Of a stretch of 64,000 nucleotides of DNA, positions 62,360 to 64,000 are shown piece by piece. The notes under the pieces were generated by a model. It was not told the origin of the DNA, ran no database searches, and saw only the letters and a list, made by a program, of their open reading frames with translations. The translations under genes and the position numbers were made by a program. Source of the DNA: an uncultured delta proteobacterium (GTDB taxonomy: Bacteria > Desulfobacterota > RBG-13-43-22); assembly GCA_963790475.1 (NCBI GenBank), contig CAWBOS010000010.1, positions 160,001 through 224,000 on the forward strand. Direction: 5' to 3'. How positions within the stretch are numbered: the stretch's first letter is position 1; every line of letters starts with the position of its first letter.

Positions 62360-62542
62360 TTGGCTGAGTATGCTCGTCATACTCTGAGAAAGGACAAGAG
62401 GCTGAATATAAGGATTTCTGAGAGAGACCTCATAGAGTTGCAGAGAAAGGCTGTCAAAGAAGGTTTGCCGTATCAGACGTATGTGTCAAGTATCATTCAC
62501 AAATTGATTAATGGAACGCTGGTTGAAGGAACGACAAAATAG
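62360..62542 (+). pseudogene. 5'-truncated RHH/CopG-type antitoxin
   Basis: KDKRLNIRISERDL...KA..EGLPYQT; no clear RBS or N-terminus; followed by a half attC-like sequence (62555-62598). Confidence 0.6.
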
Positions 62543-62786
62543 GGGCCGGCGATTGGCCGGCAAATGGATGCAGCCAATCGGCGATAAAGCGGCCTCCCGA
62601 AATCCAAATCCATAATAATGACAAGATCTTGATCAAGACATGGCCGTGGGGGTTAAATCCCAAAAAATATCCAGAGGTTTGGACGGGGACGATGACTCCG
62701 GGGACCGTTTTGTTTTTTGATTTTTAGGCAAGGTTGGATTTTTTCAAAAATCAAACAGGAAAGGTGATTAGCTTGAAGAAACAGCC

Positions 62787-62814
62787 TTGACATCCCCCCA
62801 TCAAGCATTATCAT
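62787..62814 (+). promoter_or_regulatory. sigma70 promoter of the selenopeptide candidate
   Basis: TTGACA-16-TATCAT. Confidence 0.6.
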
Positions 62815-62849
62815 TAATTAAACCTTTACGAGAAGGGAGGTGGATCGGG

Positions 62850-62987
62850 ATGATCAATAAGTTGAGCCCTAAGGTCAAGGCCAAGGAAGCTGCCTACTGG
62901 GATAAAGTTAAGAAGGTCTGGAAAGAAAATCCTGGGAAGGTATGCCACAAGTGAAAGAGTTGAAAATCTTGAACGTTGCTTGGATAG
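62850..62987 (+). CDS. candidate multi-selenocysteine peptide (45 aa, CxxUxxUxxU)
   Basis: AAGGGAGGTG RBS; MINKLSPKVKAKEAAYWDKVKKVWKENPGKVCHK-TGA-KS-TGA-KS-TGA-TLLG-TAG; hairpin at 62974-62992. Confidence 0.6.
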
Positions 62988-62997
62988 CAACGCAAAC

Positions 62998-63050
62998 GAA
63001 GGGCGGATAGGCAGTAGGGTAATCCAATAGGCTTATCCGCCCTCTTCTTT
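62998..63050 (+). terminator. terminator-like hairpin
   Basis: GGGCGGATAGGC...GCTTATCCGCCC followed by TCTTCTTT. Confidence 0.65.
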
Positions 63051-63276
63051 ATTAGAATCCGCTTTGCATCCCGGGTAAAAAGTATTTTCAAGCTTATTTT
63101 GAAATCCTTATCAAGTCTGAAATTCAAATTCTAAACCCAAAACGAACCAGTCGCATGTTAACTCATCACTCTTTTGATTTTTTTATTCAATGGCATTTGA
63201 CCGGGCGGTGTAATCTCAGGATGGGGTGTTCTCCACAAAAGCCATAAAAAAATATCTTTGGCGGAAGGGAAATGTC

Positions 63277-64000
63277 ATGAAAAGCTATGAAGTCATTATC
63301 ATCGGGGCAGGAGATGTCGGGTTAGGGTTGGCTTTTAAGGCCGCTGAACAAGGTTTAAAAGTGGCTCTTATCGATAAGGGAATGGTGGGGGGGACCTGTG
63401 TTAATTATGGTTGTGTGCCTTCGAAAACGTTGATCATTACGGCGGACCGAATTATGGAGATTCGAGAAGCCGCAAGATTGGGTATCAGCACCCAAATAAT
63501 CGATATTGATTTCAAGGCGATCATGGGGCGGATGAGAATGGCCGTCACCAGCGGTAGAAAGGGGATTGAAACGGCCATCCAAGAGACTGAAAATCTCGAT
63601 TTTATAAACAGAGAGGGACATTTCATCGATGAGCATACCTTGGAAGTGGGGGATGAAAAGATAAGAGGGAAGAAAATTTTTATCGTTAGCGGTGCTCGTC
63701 CTTCGATTCCTTTACTACCAGGACTGGACAGGATTCATTATCTGACCAATGAGACGGTCCTGGAACTTGAGAAAAGACCGGAGAGCCTCATTTTTATCGG
63801 TGCCGGATATGTCGGGCTGGAATACGCCCATTTTTTTTCGGTTTTGGGCACCAAGGTAACCATCATACACAGCCATTCGACCTTCCTGCCTTTTGAAGAA
63901 CCGGAAATATCCGAATTGCTGAAAAAGGAAATGGAAAAAACTATCGAACTGCATTTGGGGGTCGAAACGCAAGAAGTGAGACAGACCGCAGGCGGTTATA
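63277..64000 (+). CDS. pyridine nucleotide-disulfide oxidoreductase (Lpd/MerA family), partial
   Basis: IIGAG, GGTCVNYGCVPSK redox motif and IGAGYVGLE; runs off the window end. Confidence 0.92.
   Translation, partial: MKSYEVIIIGAGDVGLGLAFKAAEQGLKVALIDKGMVGGTCVNYGCVPSKTLIITADRIMEIREAARLGISTQIIDIDFKAIMGRMRMAVTSGRKGIETAIQETENLDFINREGHFIDEHTLEVGDEKIRGKKIFIVSGARPSIPLLPGLDRIHYLTNETVLELEKRPESLIFIGAGYVGLEYAHFFSVLGTKVTIIHSHSTFLPFEEPEISELLKKEMEKTIELHLGVETQEVRQTAGGY

Follow-up and report, generated by a model that had tools for sequence, protein, structure and literature searches.

A candidate two-selenocysteine peptide family with a SECIS-like hairpin past its stop codon and a radical SAM/SPASM partner, read from an orphan gene copy in an uncultured delta proteobacterium

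The 'selenobacteriocin' system SbtA/SbtM (TIGR04081/TIGR04082) is the only natural selenocysteine (Sec) peptide with a radical S-adenosylmethionine (SAM) maturase found in the literature searched. It occurs in Geobacter and relatives, and SbtM oxidises Cys or Sec to a thio- or selenooxazole (PMC9204691, PMC11002830). Here, we analyze a gene that belongs to a family with a similar layout, namely a small Sec precursor, a selenocysteine insertion sequence (SECIS) and an adjoining radical SAM/SPASM maturase, in anaerobes. The gene lies at positions 62787 to 63050 of a 64,000-nucleotide stretch from an uncultured delta proteobacterium (assembly GCA_963790475.1, contig CAWBOS010000010.1, positions 160,001 to 224,000 of the forward strand); we refer to this whole stretch as the window. 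Sequence comparison supports a real, unannotated gene for a 40-residue peptide, read as containing one Cys and two Sec. The whole unit recurs in the same genome, in the same class and in two phyla, and is therefore more than a chance arrangement. By the same comparison, the window copy is an extra member of a widespread peptide family whose genes as a rule adjoin that of a radical SAM enzyme. Our best explanation is that the gene encodes a Sec peptide, an orphan precursor served in trans, and we give this reading a probability of about 0.72.

Judged by profile and motif comparison, SbtA/SbtM is the closest known system and is of the same kind, but the family described here appears distinct from it in both peptide and enzyme. 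SbtA carries the motif SGUG or GGUG, whereas our peptide ends in C-H-K-U-K-S-U-K-S and matches no NCBIfam model. Three enzymes of the family score 129.8–140.7 bits against TIGR04082, for which the cut-off is 350, and align only to positions 199–516 of its 516 positions, the N-terminal ~200 residues being absent. A further difference is that two UGAs here appear to share one hairpin placed past the stop codon.

Other described systems share single traits with the family. The UXX-star and KCU-star selenoproteins (NF041114, NF041211 and NF033934) likewise carry Sec a few residues before the C-terminus; in these proteins and in the family here, the SECIS must therefore lie at or beyond the stop codon. 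The motifs listed for them (UxxT, GxGU and CU) and their contexts differ from ours (PMC13188914). The peptide matched no model in Pfam or in NCBIfam (0 families at E ≤ 10), a library presumed to include UXX-star and KCU-star, and only the U-x-x-stop ending is common. A reading as an FmdB-type or zinc-ribbon protein was rejected, as no model matches. The two-gene SCIFF/ranthipeptide cassettes, which we take to be alike, encode one radical SAM/SPASM enzyme together with a short peptide that is conserved toward its N-terminus and rich in Cys toward its C-terminus. To our knowledge, neither these cassettes nor the SkfB, PqqE, anSME and CteB systems naturally use Sec, whereas the peptide here is read as doing so, and our enzyme reaches no named NCBIfam maturase model. 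No description of the family was found in the literature searched, although closed supplements and the remaining parts of the catalogues (PMC12013277, PMC13326102, PMC13188914) could contain one. The passages available from a 2026 catalogue of 119 selenoprotein families hold no C-x2-U-x2-U peptide (PMC13188914). If confirmed, a new selenoprotein family would join this catalogue.

Peptide gene and selenocysteine codons

The gene and the elements around it are as follows (coordinates within the window).

62787–62814, + strand: sigma-70-type promoter TTGACA-16-TATCAT (TTGACA 62787–62792; TATCAT 62809–62814), 11 of 12 consensus matches
62833–62842, + strand: ribosome-binding site AAGGGAGGTG, read from the sequence
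62850–62972, + strand: peptide open reading frame (ORF) with its stop, ATG at 62850, supported by homologues; read as MINKLSPKVKAKEAAYWDKVKKVWKENPGKVCHKUKSUKS (40 residues)
62943–62945, + strand: Cys-32 codon TGC; all 66 distinct family sequences encode Cys here (TGC or TGT)
62952–62954, + strand: putative first Sec codon, UGA-35; TGA in 29 and TGC in 1 of 30 sequences, the TGC being that of paralogue L002
62961–62963, + strand: putative second Sec codon, UGA-38; TGA in 29 and TGC in 1 of 30 sequences, the TGC being that of paralogue L003
62970–62972, + strand: stop codon, the third TGA; TAA 12, TGA 9, TAG 8 and AAA 1 in relatives (n = 30)
62974–62992, + strand: candidate SECIS hairpin, 7-bp stem CGTTGCT/AGCAACG (arms 62974–62980 and 62986–62992) with loop TGGAT; fold of -8.3 kcal/mol, covariation
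63000–63053, + strand: hairpin like an intrinsic terminator, 13-bp stem and T-rich tail, by folding
63155–63217, + strand: decayed radical SAM/SPASM stub, first ~21 codons, by tblastn and DNA alignment

Most of these elements had been proposed in an initial annotation made from the sequence without database searches, and they were found where it had placed them: the promoter, the ribosome-binding site, the ATG, the Cys codon, the three in-frame TGAs at 62952, 62961 and 62970, the 7-bp stem with its TGGAT loop 26, 17 and 8 nucleotides (nt) after the three TGAs, and a terminator-like hairpin after the ORF. The frame consists of 34 sense codons ending V-C-H-K, followed by TGA AAG AGT TGA AAA TCT TGA. 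Two further copies occur in the same genome, L002 (C10:534970–535089) and L003 (C15:128585–128704), and promoter hexamers, ribosome-binding site, ORF, hairpin and terminator align in all three paralogues. The promoter hexamers are identical in the paralogues and in one orthologue from the same genus, while the spacer differs, and the core of the ribosome-binding site, GGTGGATCGGGATG, is unchanged in all four aligned copies.

The terminator stem is preserved in the paralogues with changes on both arms. A simple terminator scan did not list this 13-bp hairpin because its loop exceeds the limit of the scan. A 121-nt stretch folds at -41.6 kcal/mol (z = -4.95; 0 of 200 shuffles equal it). A 223-nt metatranscriptome contig from one run spans 62845–63064 at ~95% identity, which hints weakly that a relative makes a short transcript; where a transcript ends cannot be read from such contigs, and metatranscriptome libraries may also contain DNA.

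Codon usage in the family separates the third TGA from the first two. Among 30 distinct sequences, TGA-35 and TGA-38 are each TGA in 29 and TGC in 1, and neither is ever TAA or TAG, so none of these homologues ends at the first TGA through another stop codon. These counts use only protein and profile searches (of the genome itself, its class and two phylum samples), which are blind to the codon and in which a Cys codon would outscore TGA. Members found in a scan of one genome per species, with a pattern that demanded both TGAs, were excluded from the argument. In the same 30 sequences, the third position is TAA in 12, TGA in 9, TAG in 8 and AAA in 1. Because relatives use all stop codons there, the third TGA is the stop, giving a product of 40 residues with the ending C-x2-U-x2-U-K-S. 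The initial annotation had allowed for up to three Sec; two of them stand, and its caveat that the third TGA may be the real stop was correct.

Each of the two putative Sec codons is replaced by TGC in one paralogue. L002 has the tail C-H-K-C-K-S-U-K-S, with the first TGA changed, and L003 has the tail C-H-K-U-E-S-C-K-S, with the second TGA changed; the remainder of the tail, like the hairpin, is almost unchanged in both. The three paralogues of the genome are thus of the types U-U (window), C-U (C10:534970) and U-C (C15:128585). The C-U type also occurs in a contig (X16) from a run of a different study, with A>C at 62954, and therefore the change is no assembly slip. An interchange of TGA and TGC, which had been proposed as a check, is consequently present once at each site.

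Constraint on the protein extends past the TGAs, as had also been suggested. Ser-40 is encoded by TCN in 18 sequences and by AGY in 4, a switch between codon groups, and Lys-39 varies synonymously (AAA 20, AAG 10). The ratio of nonsynonymous to synonymous substitution rates (dN/dS) between the window copy and ten relatives is 0.04–0.34, and values of 0.04–0.58 are listed as coding constraint after the TGAs.

The same genome encodes the Sec machinery, each component scoring above its curated cut-off: selA (629.5 bits vs 268), selB (390.6 vs 242), selD (394.1 vs 125) and selC, the tRNA-Sec (74.3 vs 47). Based on the codon patterns, the two paralogues, the hairpin described below and this machinery, we consider it very probable that UGA-35 and UGA-38 both encode Sec.

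Two observations outside the window concern the machinery itself. The selD gene (C10:1969676–1970587) has one in-frame TGA and probably encodes a selenoprotein SelD. A second selA-like region (C13:443305–444664) is in four pieces with an in-frame TAA, the intact selA being on C20. This split region could be a broken copy, or reflect frameshifts or contamination; the genome is rated 9.68% contaminated.

The hairpin past the stop codon

All 60 aligned relatives have the hairpin, and in 55 of them its loop starts 20–22 nt from the U of UGA-38 (21 nt in the window). The MAFFT alignment (A3) misregisters hairpins with 4-nt loops and was refitted with a covariance model (R1). In the R1 alignment, 91.3% of the cells are paired and six of the seven pairs change on both sides; this alignment leans toward structure, one of its pairs contains 24 gap cells, and it takes in a spurious match of 17.7 bits as well as two loci with broken hairpins. 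The number of compensatory cells is 54, compared with 11.2 (sd 6.0) in shuffles, and 0 of 500 shuffles reach 54. Controls in which the pairing partner was slid by 1–3 columns gave 17–74% paired cells and 1–9 compensatory cells.

The published bSECIS model specifies a loop of 3–9 nt, a stem of 4–16 bp, a G in the first two loop positions, a distance of 16–37 nt from the UGA and a minimum free energy ≤ -7.5 kcal/mol (PMC13188914). The window hairpin fits this model, with its 5-nt loop UGGAU, G at loop positions 2–3, 7-bp stem and -8.3 kcal/mol. The distances of 26 and 17 nt for the first two UGAs fit as well, and the 8 nt for the third fails. The SECIS-like character that was first assigned to the hairpin is thus borne out for the first two UGAs, both by these constraints and by covariation. 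An Rfam scan of 62700–63150 (E ≤ 10) returned no SECIS and no credible family, the best match being SpF01 with 26.6 bits against a cut-off of 55.

The closest likeness is to the SECIS of Escherichia coli fdhF. The commonest variant among relatives, GTTGCAGGTCTGCAAC, has 14 consecutive bases in common with the apical hairpin of that element (GTTGCA-GGTC-TGCA is identical), unlike the window's own variant with its loop UGGAU. The distance from the U of the UGA to the loop start is 22 nt in fdhF, against 20–22 nt here, measured from the second UGA. The fdhF stem has a bulged U, whereas in the family hairpin both U's can pair. The fdhF element also lies inside the coding region and serves one UGA, whereas the hairpin here lies past the stop, with another UGA 9 nt further upstream. 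The near-identity to the fdhF hairpin suggests that the system may be testable directly in E. coli.

We infer, as the simplest reading of the alignments, that this one hairpin past the stop serves both UGAs. RNAalifold showed no second conserved structure for the first UGA. A separate hairpin for that UGA (AAGA/UCUU with an 8-nt loop, in a single-sequence fold) starts 4 nt past it, too close for the model, and was rejected. If confirmed, the family would be a test case for one bacterial 3' untranslated region SECIS serving two UGAs.

The radical SAM/SPASM partner and the orphan copy

In 58 of 70 locus records, the same ORF of ~346–350 residues lies on the same strand, 120–450 nt downstream of the peptide gene; three of these 58 repeat others over the compared stretch. 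The remaining records comprise 10 orphans, one locus cut by a contig end just inside the ORF and one that is unjudgeable. The ORF matches Pfam Radical_SAM and SPASM and, weakly, Fer4_12. Across 42 enzyme sequences, the CxxxCxxC cysteines (C19, C23 and C26) are invariant, as are seven further cysteines (C253, C271, C309, C312, C318, C321 and C344). The enzyme remains below every NCBIfam cut-off, the best of the named maturase models being AhbD (176–185 bits vs 500), with GeoRSP at 143–167 vs 400 and SbtM at 130–141 vs 350, and its nearest solved structures are SkfB (E 9.4e-27), PqqE, anSME and CteB. The initial annotation had called the peptide stand-alone. This is right for the window copy, an orphan whose partner gene lies on another contig, and wrong for the family.

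The only cognate enzyme of the genome (589.7 bits; next best 174) adjoins L003 on C15. What remains of the enzyme gene in the window is 71% identical over 21 residues to two intact enzymes (tblastn) and lies in a 30-codon ORF (63155–63247). In the DNA alignment, a 19-nt deletion has cost the stub part of its CxxxCxxC codons; homology is lost beyond it and stops short of an unrelated oxidoreductase gene. With its peptide part intact and its enzyme part decayed, the window unit is therefore a partial duplicate.

A partial duplicate may itself be heading to decay, and the window copy would then be a non-functional relic, whatever the family does elsewhere. The 21-codon stub with its deletion fits such a fate, and so does redundancy, as another copy adjoins the intact enzyme. 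The divergence from the paralogues speaks differently: dS is substantial (0.29–0.36), yet dN/dS is 0.26–0.34. Beside a decayed stub, the copy retains its promoter hexamers, ribosome-binding site, frame, both Sec codons, stop, hairpin and terminator intact. Moreover, orphan peptide genes with an unlinked cognate enzyme occur in at least four other genomes. Four of the five orphan-bearing genomes searched hold the enzyme elsewhere (564–582 bits); the fifth (G810) has no cognate enzyme, with a best score of 189.5 bits, which may be due to incompleteness. We consider a relic rather unlikely and are fairly confident that the window copy is functional. In another genome, an orphan peptide gene is followed by a stub of a 23–24-residue enzyme N-terminus (L104:1560–1631), which suggests the same kind of partial duplication, independently.

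Structure prediction places the peptide on the enzyme. The complex of the C15 enzyme with the 37-residue table-11 product of L002, predicted from a 42-row enzyme alignment with three 4Fe-4S clusters and SAM included, scored 0.89, while the best of three controls scored 0.01. Of 80 solved complexes, 58 reach this mark, as do 2 of 110 mismatched pairs; the counts are only approximate here because our own alignment was used and ligands were included. The runs agree in at least 86% of contacts, with a predicted local distance difference test score of at least 74 for the partner. Peptide residues 12–21, the conserved helix, are predicted to contact the invariant residues W55, R287 and W290, and the tail (residues 30–37) to contact 229–231 (G229–P231), 250–254 (the G251–C253 region), C318 and C321. 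The model supports binding of the peptide by the enzyme. We think it probable, from gene linkage and the model, that the enzyme acts on the peptide; if confirmed, the two would be a new enzyme–substrate pair for selenium-dependent radical chemistry. Metal binding, selenium storage, a redox role and a precursor of a peptide synthesized on the ribosome and modified after translation (RiPP) had all been listed as possible functions. Both the adjacency to a radical SAM/SPASM gene and the predicted complex favour the RiPP precursor.

The peptide could instead be a free-standing selenium or thiol protein, for instance one that binds soft metals or metalloids, carries selenium or serves in redox reactions, and would then co-occur with the radical SAM enzyme rather than be its substrate. 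The Cys-x2-Sec-x2-Sec tail with its His and Lys is a plausible chelator, orphan copies exist, and no RiPP recognition element (RRE), peptidase or exporter was found with the family; several small UxxU or CU metal-binding selenoproteins have been catalogued (PMC13188914). This reading is unlikely, given the tight same-strand adjacency to one enzyme subfamily (58 of 70 records, two phyla), typical of precursor–maturase pairs, and a predicted complex in which the conserved helix meets invariant residues of the enzyme and the tail reaches the SPASM cysteines. It is highly improbable that the ORF ends at the first TGA after 34 residues and that the downstream part is an RNA element (an attenuator or selenium-sensing leader for the enzyme gene). 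Such a reading could be proposed because the gene calls break off after residue 34 in nearly all 83 database matches, and because hairpin and terminator lie between peptide and enzyme genes in most loci. Against it, the first TGA is never TAA or TAG while the stop position uses all three, TGC replaces each TGA once, the Ser and Lys codons past the TGAs vary synonymously (including the TCN/AGY switch), the hairpin resembles a SelB-binding hairpin at the right distance, and the window copy keeps all elements with no gene left to regulate.

Several observations weigh against an orphan Sec precursor served in trans. Beyond the paralogues of the genome itself, Cys forms are absent from 401 + 401 sampled genomes, and none is found among 83 matches in 1.84 billion representative proteins. 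Of the nine codons one base away from TGA, two encode Cys, and two TGA-to-TGC changes in redundant paralogues could arise neutrally; we regard the two Cys events in redundant copies as suggestive, not decisive. Nearly all selenoproteins are reported to have Cys homologues (PMC13188914). UGA-35 is 29–31 nt from the loop, which falls in the range of 16–37 nt yet exceeds the fdhF spacing by 9 nt. An intact hairpin is lacking in two of 68 family loci, the 3' arm being replaced or interrupted (L132:3792–3850 and L137:2578–2653) with an intact enzyme gene still downstream; these could be pseudogenes, variants or assembly errors. The enzyme has no RRE/PqqD domain recognisable with Pfam, no conserved neighbour is PqqD-like, and no peptidase or exporter is conserved nearby in the neighbour clusters of the 70 locus records. 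The complex prediction used the C-U paralogue cut at its TGA, and because distant solved complexes of radical SAM enzymes with peptides exist, its score may partly reflect likeness to them. Finally, the window copy has lost its adjoining enzyme gene and could be a relic.

The orphan-precursor reading would work as follows. The unit would be transcribed separately, from the sigma-70-type promoter to the intrinsic terminator, and translated from the ATG at 62850 to the third TGA. SelB carrying Sec-tRNA(Sec) would read UGA-35 and UGA-38 as Sec, recruited for both by the single fdhF-like hairpin past the stop. The predicted product is a Lys-rich helix with a conserved K-E-A-A-[FY]-W followed by the tail C-H-K-U-K-S-U-K-S. 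The peptide unit and the start of the enzyme gene were probably duplicated together, after which the stub decayed and the peptide unit stayed intact, and the window copy would most likely be an extra precursor served in trans by the C15-encoded enzyme. The helix may dock on the enzyme so that the Cys/Sec tail comes to lie at the auxiliary Fe-S clusters, where a radical modification could form a thio- or selenoether crosslink or, as in SbtM, oxidise the tail to a heterocycle.

A bolder version, which we hold only tentatively and at somewhat less than even odds, is that the family is a second and far more widespread class of natural selenopeptides. In it, one post-stop SECIS would serve two UGAs, an RRE-less enzyme would make a selenium crosslink or heterocycle, and three precursors, two of them unlinked, would feed one enzyme; Sec would be chemically required, because there are almost no Cys forms. 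If so, the three precursors (U-U, C-U and U-C) would be a natural Sec/Cys substitution series.

Distribution of the family and neighbouring genes

With profile searches that read through stops, the family was recovered from 16 of 21 genomes in the window's class and from 26 of the 401 genomes sampled in its phylum, where four weak rows that lack a TGA are non-members. In a second phylum, 73 of 401 sampled genomes have the family, and 75 of 76 match rows carry two in-frame TGAs. The pattern scan of one genome per species returned 80 loci, 40 of them family members. These are labelled Nitrospirota, Thermodesulfovibrionales and Dissulfurispiraceae, as well as 'delta proteobacterium', Thermodesulfobacteriota, Syntrophobacterales, Desulfobaccales, Desulfobulbaceae and Syntrophorhabdus. 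A metagenome scan for C-U forms gave at least 118 matches; none of the 80 loci listed among them has the N-terminal motif or the hairpin, and all of these were dismissed as chance.

Annotation misses the family, since gene callers terminate the frame after residue 34. Protein databases carry the product as a 34-residue truncation, in two unnamed clusters by word-indexed search. Nearly all of the 83 matches found by profile search among 1.84 billion representative proteins end at profile position 34. The sole match that reaches position 40 (P0005) has W at all three TGA positions (CHKWKSWKSW), a translation with TGA as W, and shows how alternative-code gene calling can disguise Sec codons. Three other matches (P0026, P0053 and P0080) are long repetitive proteins that look unrelated and were set aside.

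Just upstream of the peptide unit in the window, a 60-residue ORF (62360–62542) has a weak match to a CopG antitoxin (21.8 bits vs a cut-off of 28). Directly after the enzyme stub, 63277–63999 encodes a pyridine nucleotide-disulphide oxidoreductase (Pyr_redox_2, 134 bits) whose redox motif reads C-V-N-Y-G-C; this gene is not conserved beside the peptide in other loci.

Two further genes recur near family loci. A YceI-like protein of 175–179 residues (PF04264, 143–157 bits) follows the enzyme gene in five loci and is encoded directly beside two orphan peptide genes, including L002; it may be a third component (coordinates include L080:1979–2503, L131:4229–4759, L147:2227–2751 and L002:740–1276). 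A B12-binding radical SAM protein of ~540 residues (PF02310 and PF04055) is encoded just upstream on the same strand in 11 loci, for instance at L081:1637–3256, the ten others being loci of the same genus or family.

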